Assembly: GCA_048938105.1 (NCBI GenBank)
Contig: JBHLMN010000006.1
Location: forward strand, 192,001-256,000
Reading direction: 5' to 3'
Source: Promethearchaeota archaeon
Lineage (GTDB): Archaea; Asgardarchaeota; Heimdallarchaeia; Hodarchaeales; Hodarchaeaceae
Length of the DNA stretch: 64,000 bases
Below are positions 15,898 to 51,979 of the stretch, piece by piece (the first letter of the stretch is position 1; each line of letters starts with the position of its first letter). Both the position numbers and the translations under genes were made by a program. The notes under the pieces are model-generated. The model had not been told where the DNA came from, made no database searches, and was given only the letters and a program-made list of their open reading frames with translations.

Positions 15898-15899
15898 CT

Positions 15900-17258: not shown

Positions 17259-17552
17259 CCCTATTAAATCCGTAATTTACAATATTTTATAATAATTTTT
17301 CCTCCAGTGATTTACAAGATGCAAGGAAAAGCAAGTTTCACTTAATATTCTTTTTCTAACCACAATAAAACACAAATGTAATTAGAATGTAGAATACACT
17401 TTTTGTAATAAAATTCTTATTGACTTGACAATTTTTTTGTAACTAAACTAAAGAACCCCCTCACAAGCAAATAAGAGGGAAATTAAATACGTACGGCACT
17501 TCCTGCCTTTTTCTATATTATATTTAGTAACTAGATTTAGAGAGGAAAGAAT

Positions 17553-18836: not shown

Positions 18837-18849
18837 AGGAGGATAATAA

Positions 18850-20682
18850 ATGACATCAGAACTATTTAAGCGAAGTACACGAGCGATTATTTATGGTTTT
18901 CAACGTAATGCTATTCAACGAATGCTTGACTTCGACTTTGTATGCAAAAGAGAAACTCCTTCCGTTGCTGCGGTAATTAGACCCAGCCAAGCAGGCGCAA
19001 TTGGTTATCACAAGGTGTTTTGGGGGGGGAAAGAAATTGTTATACCAATCTATCGAAAACTGGATCTTGCAGTCAAAAAGCATCCTGACGCGGATGTTTT
19101 GATCAACTTCTCATCATTCCGTTCTGCATATCCAACAACAATGGAAGCACTGAACTTTGATACAATTAAGACCGTAGCAGTAATTGCAGAGGGAATACCA
19201 GAGCGAAGAAGTCGTGAAATGAATAAATTAGCTAGAAGCAAGGGTAAAGTAATAATTGGCCCCGCTACAGTTGGAGGAATACAAGCAGGAGCATTTAAAA
19301 TCGGTAATACGGCAGGAACAATAGAGAATGTTGTTCTTTCAAAACTCTACCGTCCTGGCAGTGTCGGATTTGTATCAAAGAGTGGTGGTATGAGCAATGA
19401 AATGAATTTTGCTATTTCCCAGAACTCCGATGGTATCTATGAAGGAATAGCTATTGGAGGTGACCGTTATGCAGGATCAACATTGCTAGATCATCTACTT
19501 CGGTACGAAGCCAATCCTAAGATTAAAATGATGGTTTGTTTAGGTGAAGTAGGTGGTACTGGAGAAATTAATATAGTAAATGCCGTAAAAGATGGCCGTA
19601 TAACAAAGCCCCTAGTTATGTGGTGTATTGGAACAGCAGCAAGTCTTCTCCCATCAGGTTTACAATTTGGCCACGCTGGTGCAATGGCTGGAAGCGAGAT
19701 GGAAACAGCCAGTGCGAAGAACAAAGCTCTTGCAGAAGTAGGTGTAATAGTTCCTGAATCATATGATGATTTTGGGGACAAGATTAAAGAAACCTTTGAG
19801 AAACTCAAAGCTGAAGGGAAAATTGACCCTATAGAGGATTTCGAACCTCCTGAGTTGCCCATGGATTACGCTAAAGCTGCGAAAGCTGGACTTGTAAGAC
19901 GACCAACAGATGTTGTATGTACGATCAGTGATGAACGGGGAGACGTTCCAATGTTCTCTGGTGTCGGTCTTGACTCAATTGTAGAACAAAATAAATCTCT
20001 TGGATATACTATTGGTCTTCTATGGTTTAAGAGAGAATTACCTAAGTTTGCTCAAGATTATATTGAAATTGTTGTCAAATTAACATCAGATCATGGCCCT
20101 GCAGTTTCTGGAGCTCATAATGCTATTGTTACTGCCCGTGCAGGACGAGATCTGATGTCTTCACTCGCAACTGGGATTCTTACAATAGGTCCAAGATTTG
20201 GTGGAGCAATTTCTGATGCAGCAAAATATATGAAAATGGCCCTTGAAAAGAACATGACTCCTCTAGAATTTGTTGACCACATGAAAAACGTTGTTGGTAT
20301 TAATATTCCTGGTATTGGCCATAGAATCAAATCAGTTCAGAATCCTGATGTACGAGTAAAGCTATTGAAAGAATTCGTTCTTAAAAACTTTGAAAAACAT
20401 CCATATCTTGATTTTGCTCTGGAAGTCGAAAAAATCACGACAGCTAAGAGGAATAATCTAATCCTCAATGTTGATGGCTGTATTGGAATCTGTTTCATGG
20501 ATCTCTTAGAGAACTTGGACTTTTCAGAGGAGGAAAAGAATGATGTTGTTGAAAGCGAAGTTTTGAATGGATTATTCGTACTTGGACGATCAATTGGAAT
20601 GATGGGTCATATCTTCGATCAAAAGAGACAGAGAGCTGCATTATATCGACAACCTTGGGACGAAATACTCTTTGCGGATTAA
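18850..20682 (+). CDS. aclA: ATP-citrate lyase, large subunit (CoA-binding + citryl-CoA lyase domains)
   Basis: QRMLDFDF, GPATVGG, SKSGGMSNE, catalytic QFGHAGA, DHGPAVSGAHN, PGIGHRIKS, LILNVDG. Confidence 0.95.
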   Translation: MTSELFKRSTRAIIYGFQRNAIQRMLDFDFVCKRETPSVAAVIRPSQAGAIGYHKVFWGGKEIVIPIYRKLDLAVKKHPDADVLINFSSFRSAYPTTMEALNFDTIKTVAVIAEGIPERRSREMNKLARSKGKVIIGPATVGGIQAGAFKIGNTAGTIENVVLSKLYRPGSVGFVSKSGGMSNEMNFAISQNSDGIYEGIAIGGDRYAGSTLLDHLLRYEANPKIKMMVCLGEVGGTGEINIVNAVKDGRITKPLVMWCIGTAASLLPSGLQFGHAGAMAGSEMETASAKNKALAEVGVIVPESYDDFGDKIKETFEKLKAEGKIDPIEDFEPPELPMDYAKAAKAGLVRRPTDVVCTISDERGDVPMFSGVGLDSIVEQNKSLGYTIGLLWFKRELPKFAQDYIEIVVKLTSDHGPAVSGAHNAIVTARAGRDLMSSLATGILTIGPRFGGAISDAAKYMKMALEKNMTPLEFVDHMKNVVGINIPGIGHRIKSVQNPDVRVKLLKEFVLKNFEKHPYLDFALEVEKITTAKRNNLILNVDGCIGICFMDLLENLDFSEEEKNDVVESEVLNGLFVLGRSIGMMGHIFDQKRQRAALYRQPWDEILFAD

Positions 20683-20736
20683 GTCCCAATGTCTCTTTTT
20701 ATTTTAAACTAAAAATGAAATATAAGGTGATAAAAA

Positions 20737-21936
20737 TTGTCTGAAGAAAATATCAAAAAAGCACTCGAACATTTTGAGAACCTTGTTCGTGAACAACTTG
20801 AACGTGTAGAAAGAATGAAAAAAGAGCCAGATTGGACTGATTTCAGCACATTAAAACCAATTATCATTGGTGCCTGCGGTGGAGATGGTATTGGTCCGAA
20901 AATAACTGAACATGCAGTTGCCATTCTAAACTTCCTCTTAGAAGATGATATTAAATCAGGAAAGATTGAGATCCGGAATATTACAGGTTTAACAATTGAA
21001 AATAGAGCAAAAGTGATGAAAGCAATTCCTGATGATGTTTTAGAGGAACTTAAAAAATGTCATGTTATATTGAAAGGCCCAACGACCACACCCTGGAAAG
21101 GAAACAAATATGGCTGGCCAAACATTGAATCTGCCAACGTAGCAATGCGTCGGGAATTAGATCTTTTCGCCAACGTTCGTCCTGTTCGTGTACCCGAGAA
21201 GAATATCGATTGGATGTTTTATCGTGAGAACACAGAAGGAGCATACATTCTCGGCTCAAAAGGTGTTGAAGTCACAGATGATCTAGCTGTTGATTTCAAA
21301 GTAATTACCAATCAAGGTTCAGATCGCATCATCAGAGCAGCATTTGAGTATGCAAAAAAGAACAATATCAATAAAGTCACGGTGGTCACTAAAGCTAATG
21401 TTGTCAAGAAATCAGATGGAAAGTTCTTAGCTATTGCTGAAGAAGTAGCAAAAGACTATCCAGAAGTGGAATGGGACGATTGGTACGTTGACATCATGAC
21501 TGCAAAGCTCATTGATCCTGCACGACAAAGCTCCTTCCGCGTGATAACTGCTCCTAATTTGTACGGGGACATTGTTACCGACGAAGCAGCTCAAATCCAA
21601 GGAGGACTTGGTACAGCTGGAGCCGCAAATATTGGTAAGAGATATGCAATGTTCGAAGCAGTTCACGGTTCGGCCCTTCGGATGGTTGAAGATGGAAGAG
21701 TTGATTATGCTGATCCAACTAGTATCATCAAAGCCACAGCTATGCTTTTGAACCATATAGGGTTCACAGAAAAAGGAAATACACTGGACAAAGCTCTAGA
21801 CATCTGTTCTCAGTATGAAAAGAAGTTAACCATGACAGGGCGAGATACAGGCGCTACTGGCGAAAAATTTGCTGAATATATCATGGAAACGCTTCAAGAT
21901 CCCAACTTAGATCAGAAATGGCAAAGCTATCAGTGA
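20737..21936 (+). CDS. icd: Isocitrate dehydrogenase (isocitrate/isopropylmalate dehydrogenase family)
   Basis: GDGIGP, KGPTTTP, ESANVAMRRELDLFANVRP, RENTEG, NLYGDIVTD, EAVHGSA. Directly follows aclBA. TTG start after a GGTGA RBS. Confidence 0.85.
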   Translation: MSEENIKKALEHFENLVREQLERVERMKKEPDWTDFSTLKPIIIGACGGDGIGPKITEHAVAILNFLLEDDIKSGKIEIRNITGLTIENRAKVMKAIPDDVLEELKKCHVILKGPTTTPWKGNKYGWPNIESANVAMRRELDLFANVRPVRVPEKNIDWMFYRENTEGAYILGSKGVEVTDDLAVDFKVITNQGSDRIIRAAFEYAKKNNINKVTVVTKANVVKKSDGKFLAIAEEVAKDYPEVEWDDWYVDIMTAKLIDPARQSSFRVITAPNLYGDIVTDEAAQIQGGLGTAGAANIGKRYAMFEAVHGSALRMVEDGRVDYADPTSIIKATAMLLNHIGFTEKGNTLDKALDICSQYEKKLTMTGRDTGATGEKFAEYIMETLQDPNLDQKWQSYQ

Positions 21937-22064
21937 GTTGCTTTCCCTTCCCTTTTTCCTTTTTTTATAAATTGACTAGTCTCTATTTTATTTGATTATA
22001 ATTTTTTAATATAATTTATCTTAATCTTGAAAAACTATAAAAAAAAGAGGGGGAGGATGCCAAA

Positions 22065-23984
22065 TTAAATGTAGCTTAATGTGCCTCCAGCAATCAGAAT
22101 TTTTCGGTCACGCTCAGAAAGATCATATGATGTTTTAATATCAAATCCTTGAGTAATATCTCGGATGACGATTGGTTTATTTCCTTCTAAAGCTTTCCGT
22201 ACTCCTTTAATCTCTAGAACATCATTCTCTTTTATTTTATCATAATCTCCTGAATTTGAGAATGATAGAGGAAGAATTCCGAAGTTTATTAGATTATCCC
22301 GATGAATTCGCGCAAAAGATTTTGTCAGTACCGCTTTTATTCCAAGGTACATTGGAGCAAGAGCAGCGTGTTCTCGACTAGAACCTTGACCATAATTTTC
22401 TCCTCCAATGATAATTCCACCACCTTCCTTTTTACTTTCAAGAGCTCTTTCGGGGAAAGTGGGGTCTACTTGTTCAAAGACATATTTACTAATCTCTGGG
22501 AGATTGGACCTTAAAGGTAATATTTTTGCTCCTGCAGGCATAATATGATCCGTTGTGATGTTATCCTCTGTTTTAATTAGAACTTTAAACTGGAAATCAT
22601 CAGGTATCGCGTGAAATTCTGGTAATGGAGCAATGTTTGGGCCTCGGATAATCTCTACATCTTCAGGTTTGCCAGAGGGTTTTAGAATCATTGAATCGTC
22701 TATTTCGATTGAGGTTGGAATATTAACATTTGGATAATCTCCTAACTTCCGAGGATCTGTGAATTCTCCAAAAACAGCAGCAGCTACCGCAACTTCTGGG
22801 CTAACCAAATATGCATTTGCACTCTTTGTTCCACTTCTCCCATAAAAGTTCCTATTGAAAGTCCGAGCTATTGTAGCATTTGTTTTAGGAGCAAAACCCA
22901 TACCGATACAAGGTCCACAGGCAGTTTCCAGAATTCGAGCACCCGCTGTAATCATATCAGCTAAACTACCATCTTTTGATAATTGCATTAATACTTGACG
23001 TGATCCAGGGGAAATGCCTAAAACTGTATGTGGATGAATTTTACGTCCTTTTAAAAGAGCTGCAGCAGTTAACATGTCTTTTAATGAACTATTAGTGCAA
23101 GATCCAATTGCCACTTGATCTACTTTCATCCCCTCAACTTCAGAGAGAGGAACAACATCACCAGGAGAATGAGGTTTAGCAACGAGGGGTTCCAGCTCAG
23201 AGAGATTAATCTCAATTATCTCATCATAATCTTCATCTGTTCCTGCAGGAATTTCCACCCATTGATCTCCCCTTTCTTGCCATTTGAGAAAATCATGTGT
23301 GATTTCATCAGAGGGGAAGATTGAAGTTGTTGCTCCAGTTTCAGCCCCCATATTTGTAATTGTGGCGCGTTCAGGAACAGACAGTGTTTTCACTCCTGGT
23401 CCATAATACTCTAAGATCTTACCAACGCCACCTTTTACTGAAATTCTCCTGAGAACTTCTAAGATCACGTCTTTTGCCGTAACGTAATCTCTTAACGCGC
23501 CTGTCAATTTCACTCCAACAATTTTGGGTGCTTTAAGGTAGAATGGGCCACCTCCCATTGCTACAGCAACATCAAGACCACCTGCACCAATTGCTATCGC
23601 ACCCATACCGCCAGCTGTCGGGGTGTGCGAATCAGAACCGATTAAGGTCTTTCCTGGTCTGGCAAATCGCTCAAGAAACACTTGATGGCAGATACCATTC
23701 CCTGGTCGAGAAAACATGATCCCATACTTGGCTGCAATAGATTGTAGATATCGATGATCATCAGGGTTTTTAAAATCCGTTTGTAACGTGTTATGATCTA
23801 TGATTGACACAGATAACTCTGTCTTGACCTTATCAAGACCCATTGCCTCAAATTGAAGGTACGCCATAGTTCCAGTGGCATCCTGAGTCAGAGTGTGATC
23901 GATTCGAATAGCTATCTCTTCTCCAACTTCATATTTCCCTTCAATAATGTGTTCTTCTAATATTTTCTTTGCTATGCTTACCAT
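22065..23984 (-). CDS. acn: Aconitate hydratase, small (~640 aa) single-chain type
   Basis: TQDATGT, DHNTLQ, GICHQV, GSDSHT, GSCTN, CGPCIG, TTDHI, GSSREHA. Confidence 0.9.
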   Translation of the reverse strand: MVSIAKKILEEHIIEGKYEVGEEIAIRIDHTLTQDATGTMAYLQFEAMGLDKVKTELSVSIIDHNTLQTDFKNPDDHRYLQSIAAKYGIMFSRPGNGICHQVFLERFARPGKTLIGSDSHTPTAGGMGAIAIGAGGLDVAVAMGGGPFYLKAPKIVGVKLTGALRDYVTAKDVILEVLRRISVKGGVGKILEYYGPGVKTLSVPERATITNMGAETGATTSIFPSDEITHDFLKWQERGDQWVEIPAGTDEDYDEIIEINLSELEPLVAKPHSPGDVVPLSEVEGMKVDQVAIGSCTNSSLKDMLTAAALLKGRKIHPHTVLGISPGSRQVLMQLSKDGSLADMITAGARILETACGPCIGMGFAPKTNATIARTFNRNFYGRSGTKSANAYLVSPEVAVAAAVFGEFTDPRKLGDYPNVNIPTSIEIDDSMILKPSGKPEDVEIIRGPNIAPLPEFHAIPDDFQFKVLIKTEDNITTDHIMPAGAKILPLRSNLPEISKYVFEQVDPTFPERALESKKEGGGIIIGGENYGQGSSREHAALAPMYLGIKAVLTKSFARIHRDNLINFGILPLSFSNSGDYDKIKENDVLEIKGVRKALEGNKPIVIRDITQGFDIKTSYDLSERDRKILIAGGTLSYI

Positions 23985-24760: not shown

Positions 24761-30521
<5,761 letters not shown>

Positions 30522-31497: not shown

Positions 31498-33408
31498 ATG
31501 GATTTATTCAAAATTCTCAAATTAAACAAAATCGCATATAAAATAGCTGCATTAGCTCTAGTTATAGCGTTAGTACCTATAGTAGTTATTACTGTTTTTA
31601 ATGCATCAGCTCTTCAAAATGAACTTTATTCAAATGTAAAACATGATTTGACCAACAGAGCAACAGATGTAATGCATATCAGCAATGAAATGCTATTAAA
31701 TCCTGTAGAGAGCGTTGAAAGCTTAGCTGAAAGCACAATGGTTCGAAGAAGCGCTTTAAATGCAACAAAACAAAATTTGACTGTATTATGGGATAGTTAT
31801 GAAGGAGCAAACTTTGATAATGATGAGAATATGAAAAATAATAAAACAGCGAAGACATGGAATCCAGATAATGACATTGATCCTGGACTCTCTTCATACT
31901 TGGATACTTTTGCAATCAGATTTGGTTTTTCAGAGGTATTTATTGCCGATTCCCGAGGTTATGTATATGCTTGCTCCCAATCGGTTCCAGGTGATTTTTT
32001 ACAGAAAGATGAGGATTGGTGGACCGCTGCTCGTGATACATCGGATGGGCAATTCATAGAGTTTGGTTACGATGATAGTACTGGTCAATATTTGATGGAC
32101 ATCATTCAGGAAGTTCAGCTATCTGAGGGAACCTTCACTGGAATGATCAAGGCAGGATTTAATGTCGGAACATTGAATGAAGTAATTGCAGATGTTTCTC
32201 TCCTCCATGGATTAGAGGAAGAAGGAACAGAAGTAGAATATACTTCAGAATTCATTACTTCTGCGATAGAAGAAGAGGGGTTAATAGTATTTATGGTTAC
32301 TAGTGATGGTAAAATCTTCTCTCATCTTGACAGTTCACTCGTAGGGAAAAACTTAACTGAAATTATGTCACCAACTCATTCTGCAAACAAACCTATATTT
32401 TCCATCTTGAATAGTGGCGTTTTGGAATATTCTCATGGAAAAAAAATAAATATCAATGGTGTTGATTATTTTGCTTCTTATGAACCACTTGTGAATTGGG
32501 ATATTTTACTATTTTTTGGAGAAAAGGCAGCTCCTATCGAAAATAAGATCTTTAACCAAATTTTAGTTTCAATTGTCTTCTCTGTGGTCTTGGTAGCATT
32601 AGCCGTAGTTAGTGCTGTTTTCATGGCTACAACACTAGCAAAACCTATTAACAATTTATCGAAAGTCACTAATAAAATAGCCTCGGGTGATTTAACTAGT
32701 AGTATAGAGGATCTTGACCTTGATAGACATGATGAAATTGGGAGGCTAAGCCGATCATTTGGTAGCATGGTAGAGAATCTTAGTGCTTTTGTTTATGGTT
32801 CACAATCGTCTGCAGAGGAAGTGGCTTCATCAGCTGAGGAATTAGCATCTACTTCAGAAGAAGTGAACGCTCTTAGCGAAGAAATTGCCGCGACAATTCA
32901 ACAAATTAGCCGTGGTTCATCAAATCAATCCGAATTATCAGTGAAAGCCATTGAAGACGTAAAGCAAATGTCAGAGATAGTTGATCAGTCTCTTGAAAGA
33001 ATTGAAAGTACATTACGAGTCATTGAAGATATTGCAGGCCAAACAAACATATTAGCGTTGAATGCAGCTATTGAAGCTGCACGTGCAGGTGAATATGGTA
33101 GAGGTTTTGCAGTTGTCGCTGATAATGTTCGAAGGCTTGCAGAGGAAACAAAAAACAATTCAGCTGAAATTAGCAAAGTGACTGTAGATATTGTCACAAA
33201 CATTGGTGGTAGTGTAGCGAGCTTACAAGAAACATTACAAGCATTTGCGGCTCAATCAGAAGAATTTAGCGCCTCTAGTGAGGAAGTGGCTGCTGCAACC
33301 GAGGAGCAAACAGCAGCTATGAATCAGATGACTACAGCAGCTCAAGATTTAACGAAGCTTGGTGAAAAAATGGCACAACTTGTTACAAAATACAAAGTTG
33401 ACAAATAA
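31498..33408 (+). CDS. Methyl-accepting chemotaxis protein (TM-dCache-like-TM-HAMP-MA)
   Basis: Two TM helices, HAMP ([10 protein letters not shown]), signalling tip [27 protein letters not shown]. Confidence 0.95.
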
Positions 33409-33470: not shown

Positions 33471-33585
33471 TAATTCTTAAAAAGAAGCTTAGATGCACCA
33501 ATTAAACGTATATATTCTATATAGATCAGAATATAGAAAAGAAAGATCCCACCCCTTTTTCACTTGGATATATCCCTTTAAAAAA

Positions 33586-35985
33586 TCAAGCTGCAGCTTT
33601 CGCTTCTTTGTGGACTACTTCATGGTTTTTTCTAGCAATTTTACTCATTTCTGTTACAACGTCTGCAAATTTCTTCCCTTCTGCAGCTGACATCCATTCA
33701 ATGATAAACCGTTCATCAGCGATACCTTCTTTTTTCATCCAGCGACGAATCTTTTTCTCACGTTTCAATGCCCAATCGTTCCCAGAAATGTAATGACAGT
33801 CTTGAGGATGACAACCAGTCAACATCACGGCACCTGCCCCGCGTTCAAAGGCTCTTTTTATAAAATCAACATCGACACGACCCGAGCACATTGTACGGAC
33901 AATTCTAGAATTGGTTGGGTATTGAATGCGACTAGTTCCAGCTAGATCAGCTCCTCCATATGAACACCAGTTACAAGCAAAGATCATTACTTTCTCTGAG
34001 GCGTTGTCTCTAAGGGCAATGTCTATTTGCCGCATAATCATCGCATCTGTAAAGTTGGTCATTGTTATAGCATCTTTCGGGCAATCTGCAGCACATGTTC
34101 CACAACCCTTGCATAAGATGGGATTAACATGAGCAGGAGTCTTCTTTTTCTTATCCACACTAATAGCATTGTAAGGACATCGTTTAGCACAGGTACCACA
34201 AGAATTACAAAGCTCAGCATCAACATAGGCGTATAAGGGTTCAACAGTGAACTCTCCCTTAGCAAGTAACCTTGTCACTCGTCCTGCTGCAGCACTGGCT
34301 TGAGTAACACACTCGCGAATGTCTTTTGGAGATTCTGCCCCACCGGCGATGAAAACACCATCAGTTGGGGTATCAACTGGTTTTAATTTAGGGTGAGCTT
34401 CGATATAAAACCCTTTAGGATCACGAGAAACTGGAAATGGAATAGGATATGGTGAACCCTCTGCTCCAACAGAGAGAACTACAAGATCAAATTCTTTAGT
34501 TAGAAGTTTCCCCGATTGGATATCTTCAACAGAGACGAGAAGATTGTTATTTCCCGGAATTTCTTCTATCAAACCTGGTCGTCCGCGGATGAAATGGACT
34601 CCTTCCTCTCTTGAACGAGTATAAAGTTCTTCAAATCCTTTCCCAAAGGCTCGAATATCCATATAAAACACAGATATGTCTACGTCAGGCCAATGCTCTT
34701 TGATCAAAAGAGTGTCTTTTATAACTTCCATACAACAGAAGTTACTACAGTATGGGTTAAATCGAACGTCTCTCGATCCAACACAATTGATGAATGCAAC
34801 GCTTTTCGGAGGTTTGAGATCACTTGGGCGTACAAGTTCACCAGAAGTAGGCCCAGCTGCATTAATCAATCGCTCAAATTCGAATGTTGTTACTACATTG
34901 GGATAAGCTCCCCAACCATATTCTGGTATCTTGGAGGCATCAAAAATCTGAAAACCTGTAGCAACGATGATGGAACCCACTTTGAAGTTATATACCTTTT
35001 CAGTGTCTTCATAAATGATAGCTTCTTTATCACACGTGGTAGTACATTTGCCACATGCTAATGGAGAAAGACCAAGACAGTTCTCGGTATCTATTAGGTA
35101 AGCTGCTGGAACAGCCTGCGGATATGGAATATAAATTGCTTTCCTCCATCCTAGGTTACCAGAATATTCATCAATGACATTCACAGGACAAATATCAATA
35201 CAATCATTGCAAGCGGTACAAAGGTCTTCATCTACATATCGTGGTTGTTTCGTAATAGTTACCTCGAAGTTTCCTACATATCCATCAATTTTCGTAACCT
35301 CTGCACTTGCAATCAAGTTGATATTTGGATGATTACCTACATCAGCCATCTTAGGGCCAAGAATACAGATTGAACAGTCCATAGTAGGGAATGTTTTGTC
35401 AATTAACGCCATTCTCCCACCAATTGTCGGGCTTTTCTCGACCATGATGACTTCATAGTCATCAGCTAAATCTAACGCAGCTTGAATACCCGCTACCCCA
35501 CCACCAATGATTAATACTCTTTTTTCAACAGGGACAACGATTTCCTCAACAGCTTCTAATAATTCAGCTTTGGCTATTGCCATTTCAGTTAATTCTTTAG
35601 CTTTTAAAGTTGCCTCTTCTTTTTCGTGGAGATGAACCCAACTACAGTGCTCTCTGATGTTAGCAACCTCAACCACTTCTGAATTCATTCCCAATCGTCG
35701 TAAGAGATTCTTCCATGTTGGAAGATGTAATCTTGGGGAACAAGCAGAAATAACTATTTTTTCTATTCCCTGTTCTTTAATAGCTTCCTCAATCTCAACC
35801 TGTCCTGGATCTGAACAGGTATAGGTGTTTACCTGTACCAGTTTTACTCCTGGTAACTGCTCAACTTCTTTGGCGATTTCATCTATATCGACAGTTCCAC
35901 CAATATTCTTCCCACATTTACAGAGAAAAACACCAATTTTAGATTCATTTGTTGGTTGATCAACACTTTCGGTCATTGTAATCAC
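33586..35985 (-). CDS. hdrA: Heterodisulfide reductase subunit A fused to an MvhD-like [2Fe-2S] domain
   Basis: CKCGKNI, ACSPRLH, REHCSWVH, GGGVAG, DKTFPTMDCSIC, CVGSRD, YCSNFCC, C-terminal ferredoxin, then MvhD motifs FACNWCSY, MCSGRVD, GCHPQDCHY. Confidence 0.92.
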   Translation of the reverse strand: MITMTESVDQPTNESKIGVFLCKCGKNIGGTVDIDEIAKEVEQLPGVKLVQVNTYTCSDPGQVEIEEAIKEQGIEKIVISACSPRLHLPTWKNLLRRLGMNSEVVEVANIREHCSWVHLHEKEEATLKAKELTEMAIAKAELLEAVEEIVVPVEKRVLIIGGGVAGIQAALDLADDYEVIMVEKSPTIGGRMALIDKTFPTMDCSICILGPKMADVGNHPNINLIASAEVTKIDGYVGNFEVTITKQPRYVDEDLCTACNDCIDICPVNVIDEYSGNLGWRKAIYIPYPQAVPAAYLIDTENCLGLSPLACGKCTTTCDKEAIIYEDTEKVYNFKVGSIIVATGFQIFDASKIPEYGWGAYPNVVTTFEFERLINAAGPTSGELVRPSDLKPPKSVAFINCVGSRDVRFNPYCSNFCCMEVIKDTLLIKEHWPDVDISVFYMDIRAFGKGFEELYTRSREEGVHFIRGRPGLIEEIPGNNNLLVSVEDIQSGKLLTKEFDLVVLSVGAEGSPYPIPFPVSRDPKGFYIEAHPKLKPVDTPTDGVFIAGGAESPKDIRECVTQASAAAGRVTRLLAKGEFTVEPLYAYVDAELCNSCGTCAKRCPYNAISVDKKKKTPAHVNPILCKGCGTCAADCPKDAITMTNFTDAMIMRQIDIALRDNASEKVMIFACNWCSYGGADLAGTSRIQYPTNSRIVRTMCSGRVDVDFIKRAFERGAGAVMLTGCHPQDCHYISGNDWALKREKKIRRWMKKEGIADERFIIEWMSAAEGKKFADVVTEMSKIARKNHEVVHKEAKAAA

Positions 35986-35994
35986 TTATTATCA

Positions 35995-36870
35995 TCATTT
36001 TTTTGTCTTACTTTGTGCTAACTCTATCACACGATCTACTTTCTGAGTAAAACCCTCCCGTTGCGCATCAACAAACTCCCCGCAAATAATTATGCCTTTC
36101 TTAAAGTCAAATGTAGCTTCGTGGGGTGGACAATTAGTTTTTACTCTAACTTGCTTTTTTAACCATTCTAACATCGCTACAGCATCACCAAGTTTATTCT
36201 TTCGGCCGTATTGGGTAAAGCAAGGAGCAAGAACCTCTATGAAACTGAAACCTGGATTATCAAACGATTTTAGGATACTTTTTCGTAATCGAAGTGTGTC
36301 ATATCCAGGCCACCTAGCAACATAACTGGCTCCTGCAGCTGCAGCTAGAGAAACTAAGTTGAATGGAGGCTCAATGTTTCCGTAAGGTGTTGTTGCTGTG
36401 AAGTCACCAATTTGAGTCGTTGGAGCTACCTGTCCACCCGTCATTCCATACACATTATTGTTTATACACAGAACAGTTACCTCTATATTTCTTCTACATG
36501 CATGAATGAAATGGTTACCTCCTATTGCAAAGAGATCTCCATCTCCTGAAAGTACAACGACTTCAAGATCAGGATTCGCTAATTTCAACCCTGTAGCAAA
36601 AGGAATAGCCCTCCCATGTGTGGTATGAAAAGCAGGTGCTTTAAAACAACCGCTTGATCGGCCAGTACAACCTATACCTGACACAACTGCGTACTCTTTA
36701 GCAGTGAGGCCTCTTTCTCGAATACAACTAGTTATAGACGTAATTGCAGATCCAATTAAACACCCTGGACAAAAGATAAAACGATGCAAGTTCAACCATT
36801 GATGTAAAGGGTGTTCCTCTGGAAAGTCCTCAGAGCTTTCAGGTGATGGTATTTTTTCTATTGTAGTCAT
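35995..36870 (-). CDS. korB: 2-oxoacid:ferredoxin oxidoreductase beta subunit (KorB-like)
   Basis: FCPGC, SGIGC, HGRA, TPP motif GDGD...NNNVYGMTGGQ. Confidence 0.9.
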   Translation of the reverse strand: MTTIEKIPSPESSEDFPEEHPLHQWLNLHRFIFCPGCLIGSAITSITSCIRERGLTAKEYAVVSGIGCTGRSSGCFKAPAFHTTHGRAIPFATGLKLANPDLEVVVLSGDGDLFAIGGNHFIHACRRNIEVTVLCINNNVYGMTGGQVAPTTQIGDFTATTPYGNIEPPFNLVSLAAAAGASYVARWPGYDTLRLRKSILKSFDNPGFSFIEVLAPCFTQYGRKNKLGDAVAMLEWLKKQVRVKTNCPPHEATFDFKKGIIICGEFVDAQREGFTQKVDRVIELAQSKTKK

Positions 36871-36872
36871 AT

Positions 36873-38027
36873 TTAAACCTCCTTAAGTAACTGTTCATAT
36901 ATAAATGTTGGACTAAATGGAATAGTCGTTGGAATTAGGATACCAGGAACTTCAAATCCAAGATGGCGAAATCGTTGAACTTCTCGAATGACCATTCCAT
37001 AGTTCATTTCACTAACAATAACCTTTTTCACACCGAGCTTACTTAATTTCTCCATTAACTCCTGGGGGAATGGCCAAAGTGTCCTTAACCGAACTAATCC
37101 GACTTTATGGCCTTTTTTACGTACGCGCTCTACAGCTTCAGGAACACTTCTTGAATTTATTCCATAAGACAACATGACTATCTCTGCATCGTCTAAATGT
37201 TGTTCTTCCCATGGGATATATTTGTTAATATCGGAACTTGCGTTTCTGATCTTATCACAAAGACGCTTGACAAGTGTTATTGCTGTCTCTGGGGTCATAT
37301 CAGGACTACCAGTTACATCATGGGTAAGACCAGTGACGTAGAAATTATAATCACTTCCTGCAGTAGCCATCCCAGGAACGAGGTCGTCATCAAACACTTC
37401 AAAAGGTTGGTACTTTTCTGGTGGAACTTGAGGGGGTTTACGATTTATAATCTCAAAATCTGTGTGATATCGAACGGGTTCCATCATCTGCCCAACGATA
37501 CCATCTGATGCAACAATCACAGGCGTTCTATATTTTTCTGCTAAATTAAACGCGTAAATCCCAAAATCATACATCTCTTGAACTGATCCTGGAGCTAAAA
37601 CAATAACTTCATAATCACCATGAGAAGCAAATCTTACCTGCATTACATCAGATTGTGATGCTTTTGTAGGTTGTCCTGTACTAGGGCCGCCCCTCATAAT
37701 AGTCACAATAACCAATGGAGCTTCTAACATCACTCCAAGGCCAACAGTTTCAGCCATAAGTGAAAAACCTGGCCCTGAAGTTGCAGTCATTGCTTTTACA
37801 CCAGCATAAGAAGCACCAACAACAGCAACTATTGAAGCAAGTTCATCCTCCATTTGGATAAACTTCCCCCCAACCTGGGGTAAACGTCTGGACATGTAAT
37901 GCGCTATTTCTGAAGAAGGAGTGATGGGGTATCCACCAAAGAATCGACAACCAGCTGCGATCGCGCCTTCAGCTACCGCATAATTACCAGTAGTCAAAAT
38001 TAGTTTGCCATTTTTACTACTACTCAT
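36873..38027 (-). CDS. korA: 2-oxoacid:ferredoxin oxidoreductase alpha subunit (KorA-like)
   Basis: GYPITPSSE, QMEDE, ATSGPG, RGGPSTG. Confidence 0.9.
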   Translation of the reverse strand: MSSSKNGKLILTTGNYAVAEGAIAAGCRFFGGYPITPSSEIAHYMSRRLPQVGGKFIQMEDELASIVAVVGASYAGVKAMTATSGPGFSLMAETVGLGVMLEAPLVIVTIMRGGPSTGQPTKASQSDVMQVRFASHGDYEVIVLAPGSVQEMYDFGIYAFNLAEKYRTPVIVASDGIVGQMMEPVRYHTDFEIINRKPPQVPPEKYQPFEVFDDDLVPGMATAGSDYNFYVTGLTHDVTGSPDMTPETAITLVKRLCDKIRNASSDINKYIPWEEQHLDDAEIVMLSYGINSRSVPEAVERVRKKGHKVGLVRLRTLWPFPQELMEKLSKLGVKKVIVSEMNYGMVIREVQRFRHLGFEVPGILIPTTIPFSPTFIYEQLLKEV

Positions 38028-38311
38028 GGTTCTATACCCTCCTGTGGTATTTGAATTTCAGTAACGAAGATTGAAACCGAGGGACATAGTCTCTCACATT
38101 GTTGACATCCTACACATTCATCAGGCTTCACAGCGACAGCTGGGTGTAGCATTCGTGAGTTATATGCATCCAAATCAATCTCTATAACATTTGTCGGACA
38201 GAATTCCACACATAATTCACATCCATCACACTGTTCAGTTAGTATTGACACAACATACTCATGTTCAGCACGAGGAGGTGGTAATATGGGCTTCCGTTGG
38301 CTTCTTAACAT
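38024..38311 (-). CDS. korD: 2x[4Fe-4S] ferredoxin, OFOR delta subunit
   Basis: CDGCELCVEFCP and CVGCQQCERLCP; overlaps the korA start. Confidence 0.85.
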   Translation of the reverse strand: MLRSQRKPILPPPRAEHEYVVSILTEQCDGCELCVEFCPTNVIEIDLDAYNSRMLHPAVAVKPDECVGCQQCERLCPSVSIFVTEIQIPQEGIEP

Positions 38312-38907
38312 TTTCTTTCCTCTTTATGAAGTTCACACTTCTAATCATATTATTCTTAGTTATGGTTCAATTTAAAGACTAGGCTTTTAAATTTGCTTTT
38401 TGTTGGGTTAATTCGATTTCACTTTATAGTTACTTCTTAGTTATAATCATTCTTATGTAAAATAGATCTTGTTCAATCCCCTAGTATTTTCTCAATTGTT
38501 AACTATTATCATTGATTCTTTCTTCTCAGATATTGATCTTCGATGACAATCCATTCGTTCTTATCATTAAGCATCTCAGTTTATTCTTACGCCAATAATT
38601 CTGGTTTTTAAAGGATTATTAAGATATGGTAAGTTAATTAGTAATCTAACATTAACCTAAAATGAAGATTAGAATAATATTTCTGATAAATCTAATTTAT
38701 TATGGTCATTAACTATTTAAAATGATTGTTATACGTAAATCATACTCCTAAACAATTGTTATTACGTCATAAAAATTGTTCCAATTATATTTTTGAAAAA
38801 ATTCTCACCACTTTTCTCCGTAAGAGTGTTAGAGATAATTATTTCAATCTTAACGTTCTTGTTGCCTTTAAAGATAATAATTTTCTTTTTAATTTTAAAA
38901 GTGTTGA

Positions 38908-39768
38908 TCAAAGTTCTCTGATCTCTTTGATTAATTCCCCTGCTTCATTACACTTTTCCTGAATTAAAAGTATATTAGGTTTCTCTGATTCATCCAAAGT
39001 TCCTCTCATCTCAATAATAGAAGCCGCGCTGATTATGATCTGAAGAATATTTCCAATATTATGTGAGTATTTATCTTTCAGCTGATCTTTGTCCATATAT
39101 GCAATACCTCTTTCAAGATGAATAAAAAGAACAATAATTAGGATGGTTAATAAAATCCCCATTGTATAATTGCTGATTATCGCTAATATATTTGTAGAAT
39201 AATATAATCCATAAGAGTAATCCTCTATTGATAACATAAGGATGATTGATAAGATCAAATAACAGATTACACTAATAATAGTTAAATATAACCATTTAGC
39301 TCCTCCTCTTATAGTTGTATTGATTTCTTTTCCTTTAAGTAAGATCATCAAGGAGATAGCAACATATGATATAAAAATCATCGCAACTGCAAAGGGTAAT
39401 GCAAATGTTTCCCCAAATAGTCCATAAATTGTTAGGGGAAATATCATATAAAATAAAGTCACTAAAAACATTATTTTTCCTGGAACAAAGCGAAAATACG
39501 ATAAAATTCCCATGAAGATAAGGATTAGCCCTTCTGCACTCAAAATCGCATTCATGAGAAGGAGGATTTCATTTAGAAAACCTGTAGTGAGATTATCAGC
39601 AATAATTGGTAAAAATCCAGTCACTACCCAACAGATCCAACCAAAAACAGGTGCGATAAATCTCTTTTTTTTCAGATTGATTAAGAATTCAATAGAAAGA
39701 GCCAAACCAATTATTCGAATAATGGTTAGAAGAATTAAGTTGTAAAACGAGAGAAGATTCATTTTCAT
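38908..39768 (-). CDS. Multi-pass membrane protein with a C-terminal HisKA/DHp-like helix pair and no ATPase domain
   Basis: About 7 hydrophobic segments, then the H-box-like DKYSHNIGNILQII; ends about 50 aa later. Confidence 0.65.
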   Translation of the reverse strand: MKMNLLSFYNLILLTIIRIIGLALSIEFLINLKKKRFIAPVFGWICWVVTGFLPIIADNLTTGFLNEILLLMNAILSAEGLILIFMGILSYFRFVPGKIMFLVTLFYMIFPLTIYGLFGETFALPFAVAMIFISYVAISLMILLKGKEINTTIRGGAKWLYLTIISVICYLILSIILMLSIEDYSYGLYYSTNILAIISNYTMGILLTILIIVLFIHLERGIAYMDKDQLKDKYSHNIGNILQIIISAASIIEMRGTLDESEKPNILLIQEKCNEAGELIKEIREL

Positions 39769-47635: not shown

Positions 47636-48475
47636 TTAATCATTTGACAAGAAAAAATCTTTCCTTCCTTCAAAAAACCTAGCTAATCTTCCAAGAATAG
47701 CTGATTCATCTTGAGAGAAGTATCTATCTTCATTTGAAATCTCCTTAATAGCTGGGATAAAATTTTTCAAGAAAGATTCTTTATTTATTCTTTCAGTTTC
47801 CGCTAATTTCCTAGTTCTACGAGCTATTGTGAAAGCTTTGTAAAGAAGTTCCTTATTTTTCCCAATACGATGAATAATCTCTTTATCTTCCTCAGATAAT
47901 TTATTACTAGGAATAGCCTCTTTGAAACTATTTAAAACCTTATCAAAACCTCCCAAGCTTGGATATAGCTCAACAATATAGTGTAATATATCTCGAATGT
48001 TGATTACCCGAATCGGATCATCTTCAATGATTGCGTAAGAATATCCTTGAACTTCCATCATATGGAGAGCACATGCTACTGAATCAGTCTTTTTGAGAAC
48101 AACAGGTGATTTTAGCATTGCTTCTCGAATTGGCTTATCTAAATTTATTGGTGATTCATTGCATACTCTTCGAAGAAGAGATCGTTCTGTAAATATCCCT
48201 TCTATCGATCGATCTAATCCTACAACAACCACTGAGCATTTTTGATGATCAATCATCAACCCAACTACTTCTCTAACTGATTTATTTGGTGGAACTTCAA
48301 GAGCTAGTGATTCTTGTCCTCCAACTTCCCCAAGACAATCCTCTAATATTGCTTTCTCGATTCTAGAGTCCATTTTTGGCTTTCTTTTTTCGATAACAAT
48401 ATCACTATTACAATTGGAGCAATAAAGTGATCCAGGTAAATTCTCATGTCCACAAACAGCACATCTTATCATCAA
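47636..48475 (-). CDS. Zinc-ribbon + CBS-pair protein with a C-terminal helical domain
   Basis: CAVCG...CSNC at the N-terminus; GIFTERSLL and VINIRDIL CBS motifs. Confidence 0.75.
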   Translation of the reverse strand: MMIRCAVCGHENLPGSLYCSNCNSDIVIEKRKPKMDSRIEKAILEDCLGEVGGQESLALEVPPNKSVREVVGLMIDHQKCSVVVVGLDRSIEGIFTERSLLRRVCNESPINLDKPIREAMLKSPVVLKKTDSVACALHMMEVQGYSYAIIEDDPIRVINIRDILHYIVELYPSLGGFDKVLNSFKEAIPSNKLSEEDKEIIHRIGKNKELLYKAFTIARRTRKLAETERINKESFLKNFIPAIKEISNEDRYFSQDESAILGRLARFFEGRKDFFLSND

Positions 48476-48510
48476 AGTAACCTCTTAATTTAGCGATTAG
48501 ATTCTTCAAA

Positions 48511-49527
48511 CTAGGTAACACTCCAAGTTTCTCCTTCACTAACCAAATCTTGGAGTGACTTGGTACGAGTTTCCTTGGCTTCTCTCATTGATTGTTCTAA
48601 CATCTCATTATATGTTTCCTTTTGTATTGCGCGAAATACACCAACTGGTTCAGGGAACTGAGGGTGACGCATTCGTGATAAAAAGAATGCTAAAGTAGGT
48701 TCTGTAGCATATTCATCATGATAAAGTAGATCTTCACGATTAAATCCTGCATCTTTATACTTAATGACTTTAGGTGTCAGACCGTGAAGAAAAATACCTT
48801 TTTCCATATCTCGACCAAAAACCATCGGCTCTCCATGTCTAAGTTCTAAGACATTATCATAACGTAATTCTTTATCTGTGGCGTAATTGAAGGCCCCATC
48901 ATTAAAAATTAAACAATTTTGATAGATTTCTATAAAAGCTGTCCCCTTATGGTTTGCAGCTCGTCGTAAAACCTCTCTCATATGGTCTCCGTATGAATAA
49001 ACAGTTCTAGCAATAAATGTTGCCTCAGCTCCAAGTGCCCATGAAATAGGATTGACAGCATAATCAATAGAACCTCTTGGTGACGATTTTGTTTTTTTAC
49101 CAAAAATAGAGGTTGGTGAGTATTGCCCTTTAGTTAATCCATAAATCTGATTGTTAAATAGAAGAATCTTGATGTCAACATTTCTCCGCATTGCATGCAT
49201 TAAGTGATTCCCTCCAATGCTCAATCCGTCCCCATCTCCAGTGACTACCCAAACAGAGAGATCAGGCCGACTACACTTTAATCCTGTGGCAATTGCTGGA
49301 GCCCTACCATGAATAGTATTCATCCCATAAGTGTTCATGTAATAAGGAAATCGTGAACTACAACCAATACCGCTAATGAATACAATATTCTCCTTTGGTA
49401 TGTTTAATGTTGGTAGAGTTTTTTTAATATTTGCTAAGATACTGTAGTCTCCACAACCAGGACACCAGCGAACATCAAGATCGGTAGCAAAGTCTTTTGG
49501 TGCTAAAACTGGTTCTGATTTGTTCAT
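48511..49527 (-). CDS. korB: 2-oxoacid:ferredoxin oxidoreductase beta subunit (two-subunit type)
   Basis: WCPGCGD, SGIGCSSR, HGRA, GDGD, NNQIYGLTKGQ. Confidence 0.92.
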   Translation of the reverse strand: MNKSEPVLAPKDFATDLDVRWCPGCGDYSILANIKKTLPTLNIPKENIVFISGIGCSSRFPYYMNTYGMNTIHGRAPAIATGLKCSRPDLSVWVVTGDGDGLSIGGNHLMHAMRRNVDIKILLFNNQIYGLTKGQYSPTSIFGKKTKSSPRGSIDYAVNPISWALGAEATFIARTVYSYGDHMREVLRRAANHKGTAFIEIYQNCLIFNDGAFNYATDKELRYDNVLELRHGEPMVFGRDMEKGIFLHGLTPKVIKYKDAGFNREDLLYHDEYATEPTLAFFLSRMRHPQFPEPVGVFRAIQKETYNEMLEQSMREAKETRTKSLQDLVSEGETWSVT

Positions 49528-49531
49528 CGTC

Positions 49532-51415
49532 TTATTCAGCTCCTAAAACGTTCAGAATTTTATCTTGAATCTCCCTTACTTGGAATGGTCTTCCCTGTAC
49601 TTTAGATAATCCAGTAGTTTTAATTGAATACCTTGCTTGAACCATAAATTGTAATTGTCCTAAATTCATCTCCGGAATCAAGATCTTATTGTAAGATTGT
49701 AGAATTTCTTCCAAATTTGGAGGAAAAGGATTTAAGTATTTTAAATTTGTATTTGCAACGCTGTAACCCTGTTTTCTCATATTTTTTGCAGCCGTATAAG
49801 CTGCTCCATATGTCGATCCCCAACTAAGGACTAATAAATCACCCTTTTTAGGACCTTCTATCTTTTGCAGAGGAATGTCTCTCGTAATCCTTCTAATTTT
49901 CTCTGCTCTTACATTGACCATTTTTTCATGATTTAAAGGGTCGTAGCTTACATTACCAGTCACCTCTTCCTTCTCCAACCCCCCTGTACGATATTCTAAT
50001 CCTTTAACTCCTGGGATCGCCCATGGTCTTACTAGATTCTCATTACGAATGTATGGATGAAATATGTCAGAATCTTTTAGGAATTCTTTTGAAGGATGTT
50101 GAACATCTATTTCTTTGTACTGGCTTATATCAGGGATTCTCCAAGGATCAATGTTATTTGCAACAAAACCATCACTGAGAATTACGACAGGAGTCATATA
50201 TTTAATAGCAAGTCTTACAGCTTCTATCGCAGTCTCGAAACAATCCCCAGGTGTCTGTGGGGCGATAACTGGTAGAGGAGACTCACCATTTCGTCCAAAT
50301 AGTGCTTGCAAGAGGTCTCCTTGTTCTGATTTGGTTGGCATCCCAGTACTCGGACCTGCTCTCTGTACATTAATAACTACGAGTGGTAATTCAGTAATTA
50401 CGGCAAGCCCCAACGCTTCGGTCATTAAAGCAAATCCTGGCCCTGATGTTCCAGCGACTCCAATAATTCCTCCAAATGAAGCACCAATGGCTGAACCAAT
50501 AGCAGCTATCTCATCCTCAGCTTGAAAAACCCGTACCCCAAACTCTTTATGCTTTACTAGTTCATGTAATAGATCGCTAGCAGGGGTTATTGGATATGCT
50601 CCATAAAATAATTCTTTTTTTGCAAGATTGGCTGCTGCAATTAAACCCAAACTCAAAGCTTCATTACCAGAAATGTATCTGTAAAGTCCTGGTTTCATTT
50701 TAGCTGGGGGAACATGATACTGAATTGGAAATAGTTCAGCAGTTTCTCCAAAATTGTACCCGGCTTTTAATGTCTTAATATTTGCTTTTACTATCGCAGG
50801 ACGATGTTTGAATTTTTCTTCAATCCATTCAACAGTAGGGGTAAGAGGTCGATCATACAACCAAGAAATTAATCCGAGAGCAAAGAAGTTCTTTGTTAAA
50901 TCAATTTGCTTAAAAGATAACCCCTCAGATTCTACAGCTGTCTGATTTAGTTTTGTTATACTTATAGGGTAAACATGATAATTTCGTAGCGAATTATCCT
51001 CCAATGGATTTTGATTATATCTGGCTTTTTCTAAGTTTCTATCAGTAAATGTGTCTTGATTTACTATCAAGATTCCTTTTGGTTTTAAATCTGGTAGATT
51101 AACTTTTAATGCAGCAGGATTCATTACTACAAGAGCATCTAAATCATCCCCAGGAGTAGAGATAGTCTCCGAAGAAAAATGTATCTGAAACCCCGAAACA
51201 CCTGCAAGTGTACCTGCAGGTGCTCGGATCTCTCCTGGGAAATCAGGGAAAGTAGAAATGTCATTACCATAAATTACTGACGCAGTAGTGAATTTTAATC
51301 CAGCTAATTGCATTCCATCTCCACTATCCCCTGCGAGTCGAATCACAACATGATCAAGAGTAGAAATTTCCTTATCCTGATCCGTTTTCTTCTCCTCTGA
51401 GACTATTTCTTCCAT
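49532..51415 (-). CDS. korA: 2-oxoacid:ferredoxin oxidoreductase alpha subunit with fused gamma domain
   Basis: AGDSGDGMQL, EIRAPAGT, YPITPAS, QAEDE, RAGPSTG. Confidence 0.92.
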   Translation of the reverse strand: MEEIVSEEKKTDQDKEISTLDHVVIRLAGDSGDGMQLAGLKFTTASVIYGNDISTFPDFPGEIRAPAGTLAGVSGFQIHFSSETISTPGDDLDALVVMNPAALKVNLPDLKPKGILIVNQDTFTDRNLEKARYNQNPLEDNSLRNYHVYPISITKLNQTAVESEGLSFKQIDLTKNFFALGLISWLYDRPLTPTVEWIEEKFKHRPAIVKANIKTLKAGYNFGETAELFPIQYHVPPAKMKPGLYRYISGNEALSLGLIAAANLAKKELFYGAYPITPASDLLHELVKHKEFGVRVFQAEDEIAAIGSAIGASFGGIIGVAGTSGPGFALMTEALGLAVITELPLVVINVQRAGPSTGMPTKSEQGDLLQALFGRNGESPLPVIAPQTPGDCFETAIEAVRLAIKYMTPVVILSDGFVANNIDPWRIPDISQYKEIDVQHPSKEFLKDSDIFHPYIRNENLVRPWAIPGVKGLEYRTGGLEKEEVTGNVSYDPLNHEKMVNVRAEKIRRITRDIPLQKIEGPKKGDLLVLSWGSTYGAAYTAAKNMRKQGYSVANTNLKYLNPFPPNLEEILQSYNKILIPEMNLGQLQFMVQARYSIKTTGLSKVQGRPFQVREIQDKILNVLGAE

Positions 51416-51438
51416 AATGTTTCACCGAAATTTGCTGT

Positions 51439-51918
51439 TCAAGCTCCTTCTCTCTCTTTCTGGTCTGGTTGATCTGGTATTAGAGTATAAATGCTCTCAG
51501 CAAAATAGTCTACTAAATAAGATACAAAATCTCTAACTGAAACAACACCTTTCACTTTTCCTTGATCGACTATCGGCATATGCATGAAATTATTTTTTTC
51601 CATTGTCATTACAAGTTGGGATATCGGTTCAGTCCTTTCCATACAACACTCTAATTCAGTTGACATTATAGTACTTATTGGAGCTTCCTCATCCAGAGTA
51701 CTATCTCTCACCCAACGCACAATACGCTGTTCTGTAACGATACCCTTAAATCTCTCTTGATCATCTAATATGCAGACATAATCTGTTTCCTTATCTAGCA
51801 TGGATTTAATGGTTTCTCTAATACTTGCTGTTTCAGGTAATGTATTAAGCTGTTTGCGAATTAAACGCTCACATGGATCCTTTCGGAATAACTTAAGAAT
51901 ATAGTCTCCATATTCCAT
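51439..51918 (-). CDS. CBS-domain pair protein
   Basis: GIVTEQRI and GVVSVRDF CBS motifs. Confidence 0.85.
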   Translation of the reverse strand: MEYGDYILKLFRKDPCERLIRKQLNTLPETASIRETIKSMLDKETDYVCILDDQERFKGIVTEQRIVRWVRDSTLDEEAPISTIMSTELECCMERTEPISQLVMTMEKNNFMHMPIVDQGKVKGVVSVRDFVSYLVDYFAESIYTLIPDQPDQKEREGA

Positions 51919-51979
51919 TTTTTAACCACATTATTTCAGTTTTTTTTAAAATACATGTAATTATGCTGTTGACACTCCA

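Follow-up and report, generated by a model that had tools for sequence, protein, structure and literature searches.

Why does an operon for a 2-oxoacid:ferredoxin oxidoreductase (OFOR) stand without a gamma gene, and why does it run directly into a gene for an HdrA-MvhD fusion flavoprotein? This question is raised by the korD-korA-korB-hdrA/mvhD locus in a 64,000-nucleotide stretch of Promethearchaeota DNA (the window), which is part of contig C41 of a 5.85-Mb metagenome-assembled genome (MAG; G000) that is 99% complete with 7% contamination. The kor-hdrA linkage recurs in dozens of independent genomes, far beyond chance, and an orthologue of the missing gamma gene was found elsewhere in the genome. 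The reading that we prefer, at a probability of roughly 40%, is that Kor and HdrA-MvhD would form one redox module, working in the oxidative direction in this genome.

The four genes occupy a minus-strand block in the order korD-korA-korB-hdrA/mvhD, from window position 38311 down to 33586 as given by the open reading frame (ORF) list. The features of the block, all on the minus strand, are as follows:

38312..38907, minus strand: upstream spacer of 596 bp, AT-rich with a GC content of about 0.31, presumed to be the promoter region (sequence read)
A few nt ahead of the korD ATG, minus strand: ribosome-binding site of the GAGG type (sequence read)
38024..38311, minus strand: korD, delta subunit, 95 aa (ORF list, Pfam, NCBIfam, motifs)
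36873..38027, minus strand: korA, alpha subunit, 384 aa (ORF list, Pfam, NCBIfam, solved-chain matches)
35995..36870, minus strand: korB, beta subunit, 291 aa (ORF list, Pfam, NCBIfam, motifs)
33586..35985, minus strand: hdrA-mvhD fusion, 799 aa (ORF list, Pfam, NCBIfam, solved-chain matches)
33640..33990, minus strand: MvhD ([2Fe-2S]) domain of the fusion, residues 666-782 (Pfam FlpD)
33580..33585, minus strand: T6 run directly after the hdrA stop codon, a likely archaeal terminator (sequence read)

According to the ORF list, korD and korA overlap by 4 nt and a gap of 2 nt separates korA from korB. The gap between korB and hdrA is 9 nt when counted from a GTG start, and 18 nt from an ATG three codons further in. 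The four genes form one transcription-unit-like block. An earlier reading of this DNA, made from its letters alone (the initial annotation), had claimed this tight spacing, an alpha subunit without a fused gamma domain, and a lack of adjacent hdrB/C or hydrogenase genes. All three claims were borne out at the locus, where KorA carries no PF01558 domain and the ORF list and Pfam gave no hdrB/C or hydrogenase genes flanking the operon.

KorD contains two CxxCxxCxxxCP motifs (2x[4Fe-4S]) and matched Fer4 families in Pfam, and its top NCBIfam models, OorD and OGOR_delta, were both under cut-off (OorD scored 53 bits against a cut-off of 93). KorA comprises domains I and II with no domain III, as seen from the Pfam matches to POR_N (232 bits) and PFOR_II (65 bits), and has a YPITP motif at residue 33. 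Its NCBIfam score for PRK08659, 494 bits, exceeds the cut-off of 411, and the OorA model came third, after generic 2-oxoacid models, with 368 bits against a cut-off of 579; solved alpha chains of 8YS5 and 1YD7 were matched at 330 and 264 bits. KorB matched TPP_enzyme_C in Pfam with 116 bits and shows the thiamine pyrophosphate (TPP)-binding GDG at residues 109-111, together with Cys34, Cys37, Cys68 and Cys217 as ligands for the proximal [4Fe-4S] cluster. Its top NCBIfam model was OorB (244 bits, under the cut-off of 364), and its match to 8YS5_C reached 214 bits. The operon thus encodes three of the four subunits (delta, alpha and beta) that make up an Oor/Kor-type 2-oxoacid:ferredoxin oxidoreductase.

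The fusion protein is laid out as an N-terminal Fe-S domain, a flavin adenine dinucleotide (FAD) domain, inserted and C-terminal ferredoxin domains, and then MvhD. This is the same architecture as that of HdrA2, whose NCBIfam model (NF040770) scored 1076 bits, narrowly under its cut-off of 1100. The protein has 33 cysteines, including three CxxCxxCxxxCP motifs. Its residues 14-662 align to the solved HdrA chain 5ODC_A with 744 bits, and 7BKB_A, the HdrA chain of the Fdh-Hdr-Fmd complex, was also among the solved-chain matches. In the 5ODC_A alignment, FEFERL (368-373) lies on LELERM, placing E371 on E356, and CCMEVIK (417-423) lies on CCMYAMK, placing K423 on K409, which confirms that the FAD-site glutamate and lysine picked out in the initial annotation are kept. 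The MvhD domain (FlpD, 153 bits, residues 666-782, with Cys671, 674, 700, 725 and 730) matched the solved chains 9SW2_D, 8RVU_F and 5ODC_D. The hdrA-mvhD product is a complete HdrA2-type flavoprotein, and the identity to solved chains already fixes the folds of both Kor and HdrA.

The conservation of the kor-hdrA linkage was then checked in other genomes. The Asgard-type set consisted of 46 loci whose HdrA-MvhD is at least 72% identical, 42 of them with enough upstream DNA. In every one of these (42/42) korB stands directly upstream of hdrA, with a spacing of 0-118 bp at 41 of the 42 loci and of 457 bp at the remaining one (L034). Among more distant loci (HdrA identity 49-56%), from Bathyarchaeia, Thermoplasmata, Deltaproteobacteria, Fibrobacteres-type, Eisenbacteria-type, Planctomycetota and Acidobacteriota genomes, Kor genes were found within 7 kb in 20 of 34 cases, or in 11 of the 14 with full flanks. 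The composition of the distant clusters varies: the Bathyarchaeia loci add a gene for a GltD/NfnB-like NAD(P)H-type flavoprotein (L057), and the Thermoplasmata and several bacterial loci carry korABG, a tandem HdrA of ~1000 aa, MvhD, an HdrD-like CCG protein and HdrA-MvhD. Kor also stands next to other HdrA lineages in other Heimdallarchaeia families and in the Asgard families f6, f17 and f18, and in family f11 a related HdrA-MvhD does not adjoin Kor. Members of the genus have KorB, HdrA and gamma either all together or not at all, contig-edge cases aside; a 93% complete genome (G002) is without all three. Kor and HdrA-MvhD have been passed on as a pair, and as a pair they have been retained or lost.

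Three observations were made beside this survey. At L075:2477-7002 and L063:2249-5691, the genes encode a BamE/Qmo-like tandem HdrA, a free-standing MvhD and a Fer4+2xCCG protein that resembles HdrD, and the L063 tandem HdrA frame has an apparent in-frame stop (possible selenocysteine). Asgard-type operons with 72-78% HdrA identity occur under bacterial MAG names (L030, L034 and L040, named Nanopelagicaceae, Desulfobacterales and Rhodobacteraceae) and are probably mis-binned Asgard contigs. A horizontal transfer between the Hodarchaeales and Loki-type carriers was considered from their ~78% identity; the HdrA tree shows reciprocally monophyletic sister clades, and no transfer is claimed.

Domain III (gamma, CoA-binding) is regarded as essential for OFOR activity (PMC13768988). 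The genome holds nine PF01558 matches, eight of which are part of separate OFOR operons, of the por/vor/ior or the two-subunit type. The ninth is an orphan gamma gene of 188 aa on contig C50 (G000:C50:52709-53275; PF01558, 68.7 bits), with an AsnC-type regulator on one side and an amidohydrolase on the other. In 26 Loki-type loci its orthologues, 55-72% identical, stand immediately upstream of korD and share its strand, and the kor-linked gamma of one locus (L016) and the C50 gene are reciprocal best hits at 59% identity, the next paralogue being at 24%. In four Hodarchaeales loci (L007, L008, L009, L011) gamma is adjacent but inverted, and in the five closest relatives (L002-L005, L037), as in the window, it does not lie within 7 kb. 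The gene is intact, at 79-86% identity, in the relatives where it is likewise relocated; in the closed genome G009 a distance of 2.29 Mb separates it from korB. Thus, the initial annotation was right that the operon itself has no gamma gene (no PF01558), but not for the genome as a whole, given the orphan orthologue on C50.

As gamma stands upstream of korD in the sister lineages, the ancestral order of the Asgard clade was korG-D-A-B-hdrA, and hdrA is therefore not in the slot of gamma; the earlier statement that hdrA-mvhD occupies the usual korC position did not hold. The comparison of gene orders indicates that gamma left a korG-D-A-B-hdrA/mvhD(-hdrC-hdrB) operon in an ancestor of the present Hodarchaeales subclade. 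The Thermoplasmata and bacterial versions have gamma after korB and before the hdrA genes (korABG, then hdrA), the Bathyarchaeia order is hdrA-korD-A-B-G, and KorB-gamma fusions are common among the longer KorB relatives. Gamma is encoded in trans on C50 and would assemble with KorDAB. For metabolic calls made from genomes this carries a caution: a subunit absent from its operon was relocated, not lost. Two side observations concern the same genes. The orphan gamma lies ~14 kb from an mvhG-mvhA-hdrA/mvhD-hdrC-hdrB operon on the same contig C50 (L081, L082), probably by coincidence, and in G011, where no gamma was found, the KorB orthologue has an in-frame TGA (G011:C1:81550-82416), possibly a pseudogene or a sequencing error.

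That separate operon (C50:67353-73578) encodes its own HdrA, 36% identical to the Kor-linked one. Since this Mvh-Hdr operon is complete with its own HdrA, the Kor-linked HdrA is an extra paralogue. The initial annotation had held out the alternative of a linkage unique to this genome, with the HdrA belonging to a standard MvhAG-HdrABC complex; the linkage proved to be widespread, and the C50 operon has its own HdrA. Directly after hdrA/mvhD, hdrC and hdrB follow in L011, L034 and L042, which are basal members of the Asgard-type clade in the HdrA tree, and in deltaproteobacterial and Fibrobacter-type loci. The crown Hodarchaeales, including the window, and the Loki-type clade are without hdrC-hdrB after hdrA. 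By analogy with gamma, a relocated hdrCB orthologue was looked for in the genome and was not found, the best matches being at 40-43% and coming from the Mvh-Hdr operon. The loss of hdrCB while hdrA/mvhD was kept points to the pairing of Kor with HdrA-MvhD as the core.

The initial annotation had suggested that the CCG-domain proteins of the window could be the high-potential branch, and they were rejected as partners. These proteins, which comprise GlcD-type FAD dehydrogenase fusions and one CCG protein of 319 aa, lie 25-30 kb off and are not syntenic with the operon in relatives. The genome as a whole has 27 CCG-domain matches (most such proteins with two CCG domains) and six MvhD-domain matches, five besides that of the operon. 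Its Hdr repertoire is unusually rich: tandem HdrA-like clusters (about 1000-1200 aa) were noted at C6:36859-47193, C6:388731-392252 and C4:70416-74853, with MvhD, CCG and FrhB-like neighbours. In several relatives a second HdrA-MvhD paralogue has an in-frame TGA, which may be selenocysteine, at G011:C25:39051-41414, G009:C1:1528958-1531330 and G005:C42:815-3196.

The operon is set in an island of the TCA (tricarboxylic acid cycle) or reverse-TCA type, which spans window positions 5848-23984 and 47636-54694. The island and the nearest neighbours of the operon are composed of the following genes:

5848-23984 and 47636-54694: CoA-transferase, sucDC, class-I fumarase, sdh/frdABCD, LarA-like gene, icd and two aconitases
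17553-20682: ATP-citrate lyase aclB/aclA, within the island
49532-51415 (gamma-alpha fusion) and 48511-49527 (beta): second two-subunit OFOR, flanked by CBS-domain proteins and adjoining the large aconitase
31498-33408: gene for a chemoreceptor (MCP), convergent with the operon and the next gene past hdrA (ORF list, Pfam)
24761-27412 and 27402-30512: FtsX/MacB-type permease and LacZ-type beta-galactosidase (1036 aa), respectively
38908-39768: 286-aa protein without a family match, conserved in L004
39933-44416: ferritin/Dps-like and rubrerythrin gene cluster (oxidative-stress/iron module), just upstream of the kor operon

The beta-galactosidase and permease genes separate the kor-hdrA operon from the acn-icd-acl block. 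They look like insertions into the island, because the distance between operon and block is ~5 kb shorter in the relatives L003 and L004, where the operon is also near acn and icd. The fumarate reductase/succinate dehydrogenase of the window is of the membrane ABCD type and lies ~18 kb from the operon. This TCA context is only suggestive of 2-oxoglutarate as the Kor substrate. With regard to electron carriers, CofH and CofE of F420 biosynthesis are above their cut-offs in this genome, and among the operon-bearing relatives CofE is above cut-off in 4/4 and CofH in 3/4.

In the oxidative module that we prefer, Kor would oxidise 2-oxoglutarate, giving succinyl-CoA plus CO2, with HdrA-MvhD as the dedicated acceptor. 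Electrons would pass from TPP to the beta [4Fe-4S] cluster, on to the two KorD clusters, and from there into HdrA-MvhD with its Fe-S chain and FAD. KorD would thereby fill the role that a ferredoxin or polyferredoxin has in other HdrA systems, and the contact between Kor and HdrA would probably be made through the MvhD domain, not only via free ferredoxin. HdrA-MvhD would gather single electrons on its FAD and give a hydride to a two-electron carrier. F420 appears to be the best candidate for this carrier, because HdrA2 of Methanosarcina acetivorans alone catalyses ferredoxin-dependent F420 reduction (Yan et al., 2017; PMC5296606) and this genome has genes for making F420; alternatively, HdrBC/Mvh modules from other loci may receive the electrons. 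In the basal relatives and bacteria, which have hdrCB in cis, the module could be a true bifurcating or confurcating system. The oxidative direction is favoured because no cognate HdrBC is there to pay for an uphill branch, and because of the F420 activity of HdrA2, the presence of CofH and CofE, and the oxidation of 2-oxoacids by MK-D1. The latter, the only cultured member of Lokiarchaeia, ferments amino acids and oxidises 2-oxoacids (PMC7015854), and its link to the operon is at the level of class.

Several points count against this preferred reading. The TCA island around the operon includes ATP-citrate lyase, which fits a reductive role too, and the specific Oor/Kor models are below cut-off for beta and delta (NCBIfam). 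The strict orthologous operon is patchy, being present in 11 of 150 sampled Asgard genomes and in two families; wherever a single contig of these genomes carries both genes, the two are directly adjacent. No HdrA fusion was found among the best 120 of 457 longer KorB relatives, all of which were KorB-gamma or KorA-KorB fusions, and longer KorD relatives gave none, a weak negative like that of the KorB set.

The first of these points leads to the opposite direction of flow. Following Rubin-Blum et al. (2019), HdrA-MvhD would bifurcate mid-potential electrons (from NAD(P)H, F420H2 or, by way of Mvh, H2), so that a low-potential electron via KorD drives the carboxylation of succinyl-CoA to 2-oxoglutarate and the high-potential one goes to an HdrBC-type module elsewhere. 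Reductive carboxylation by Kor was also what the initial annotation had suggested. The island offers, besides its ATP-citrate lyase, an isocitrate dehydrogenase, two aconitases, sucCD, fumarase and sdh/frd, the operon stays near acn and icd in L003 and L004, and the clusters of relatives and bacteria also include hdrCB, an HdrD-like module or a GltD-like NAD(P)H one. The Fdh-Hdr-Fmd complex is a solved precedent for a low-potential HdrA branch wired into a CO2-reducing enzyme, and speaks for the same direction. Such a role is also the published proposal for kor-tfr-flx-hdr clusters, for which co-expression is reported (PMC6315080; PMC13147460). On the other hand, this genome has no HdrBC, either in cis or orthologous, for the exergonic branch, which leaves the uphill direction without an obvious driving branch, and the operon contains no donor module. 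The Loki-type carriers share their class with MK-D1, an amino-acid fermenter that oxidises 2-oxoacids (PMC7015854), and the second two-subunit OFOR beside the large aconitase could serve the cycle instead. Overall, we regard a reductive module as less likely than the oxidative one in this genome, though as a serious rival to it.

A looser arrangement would need no complex at all. An ordinary Kor would reduce free ferredoxin, and HdrA-MvhD with HdrB/C in trans would re-oxidise it as a ferredoxin:disulfide or ferredoxin:F420 oxidoreductase, like Methanosarcina HdrA2B2C2, the two being only co-expressed. In Methanosarcina acetivorans, hdrC2B2 is unlinked to hdrA2, and in the present genome the 27 CCG-domain and five other MvhD-domain matches could provide partners in trans. 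HdrA2B2C2 takes free ferredoxin as its donor (PMC5296606), and the lack of Kor-HdrA fusions among the longer KorB and KorD relatives described above fits as well. This arrangement is nevertheless doubtful: the spacing is like that of translationally coupled genes (0-118 bp at 41 of the 42 loci), and different classes and phyla have retained both this spacing and the order of the genes, which is unusual for mere co-regulation; in addition, KorD is already a built-in ferredoxin domain. That HdrA-MvhD structurally replaces gamma, making Kor a CoA-independent or novel three-subunit enzyme, is highly improbable and agrees only with the local gene order and the operon's lack of PF01558, being contradicted by the intact C50 gamma and by the relatives that have gamma and hdrA together, whether gamma is beside korD in the hdrA-bearing sister lineages, between korB and hdrA in the Thermoplasmata and bacteria, or after korB and downstream of hdrA in the Bathyarchaeia.

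Returning to the coupling of Kor with HdrA-MvhD, we tentatively propose that the alpha, beta, gamma and delta subunits and HdrA-MvhD may form a physical complex. It would represent a new class of enzymes, with a bifurcating flavin to which the 2-oxoacid/acyl-CoA + CO2 couple is directly wired. Such a complex would either oxidise 2-oxoglutarate with F420 (or a disulfide) as acceptor or be a synthase of 2-oxoglutarate driven by bifurcation. If this is true, the Kor-HdrA module would be old and widely shared among Asgard archaea, Bathyarchaeia, Thermoplasmata and more than five bacterial phyla. It would connect a carbon step of the TCA cycle to flavin-based electron bifurcation in a new way, in either direction, and add to the partners that the HdrA module is known to have. 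The step from which Asgard archaea chiefly gain ATP is held to be the oxidation of 2-oxoacids, which also has a place in models of eukaryogenesis (PMC7015854), and the current account of the resulting low-potential electrons goes no further than "ferredoxin plus Mvh-Hdr"; the module would act at this 2-oxoacid step, central to current models of Asgard energy metabolism. The archaeal and bacterial versions, with HdrBC, HdrD, a GltD-like subunit or none of these, provide a natural series for biochemical dissection.

No published description of an Asgard korDAB-hdrA/mvhD operon was found in the literature. The idea of an Hdr-linked 2-oxoglutarate:ferredoxin oxidoreductase (OGOR) is already published for bacteria, in a proposal for tubeworm symbionts and a later citation of it (PMC6315080; PMC13147460). 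What our analysis appears to add is the relocation of gamma, the presence of hdrCB in basal and bacterial versions without a close orthologue here, and the ferredoxin:F420 activity of HdrA2 as a candidate function.

The tubeworm symbionts and Thioflavicoccus mobilis have a korABCD-tfrAB-flxABCD-hdrABC cluster of the reverse TCA cycle, for which direct electron shuttling to OGOR from an HdrA-containing bifurcation system was put forward as a proposal only (Rubin-Blum et al., 2019; PMC6315080). In both systems the kor genes are linked with hdrA, which they adjoin here with a gap of 9 nt. The symbiont cluster has the FlxABCD NADH dehydrogenase, HdrBC, the thiol:fumarate reductase TfrAB and korC in cis, whereas the Asgard operon is minimal: it consists of four genes, lacks Flx, Tfr and HdrBC, and has its gamma encoded in trans.

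Methanosarcina HdrA2B2C2 shares the HdrA-MvhD fusion architecture, the window protein reaching 1076 bits on the HdrA2 model. It differs in that the present protein stays under the cut-off of 1100 and has Kor as its putative partner in place of a methanogenic pathway, with no cognate HdrB2C2 orthologue and no coenzyme M/coenzyme B chemistry expected. MvhAGD-HdrABC and Fdh-Hdr-Fmd (5ODC, 8RVU, 7BKB) resemble it in the end-to-end HdrA alignment, the FAD-site Glu/Lys, the Cys motifs and the use of MvhD as an adaptor for electron entry. In contrast to these complexes, the operon has no hydrogenase, formate dehydrogenase or HdrBC, and the Mvh-Hdr operon of the genome is on C50. In the Fmd supercomplex, HdrA is wired directly to a CO2-converting enzyme via a ferredoxin-like subunit. 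The OorDABC/KGOR enzymes (8YS5; P. furiosus 1YD7) are alike in the alpha, beta and delta sequences, in the YPITP, TPP and cluster motifs and in requiring a separate gamma, and are unlike the present system in that gamma is unlinked here and an HdrA-MvhD gene is appended.

Lastly, the 2-oxoglutarate:NADP+ oxidoreductase of Azoarcus evansii and the phenylglyoxylate:NAD+ oxidoreductase PadEFGHI consist of an OFOR core and a flavoprotein that is GltD/NfnB-like, not HdrA. A GltD-like gene accompanies hdrA-kor in the Bathyarchaeia locus L057, and not in the window. The flavoprotein of these two enzymes takes up electrons singly and delivers them as a hydride to a carrier of the nicotinamide type, which is the same principle as that proposed here for Kor and HdrA-MvhD.

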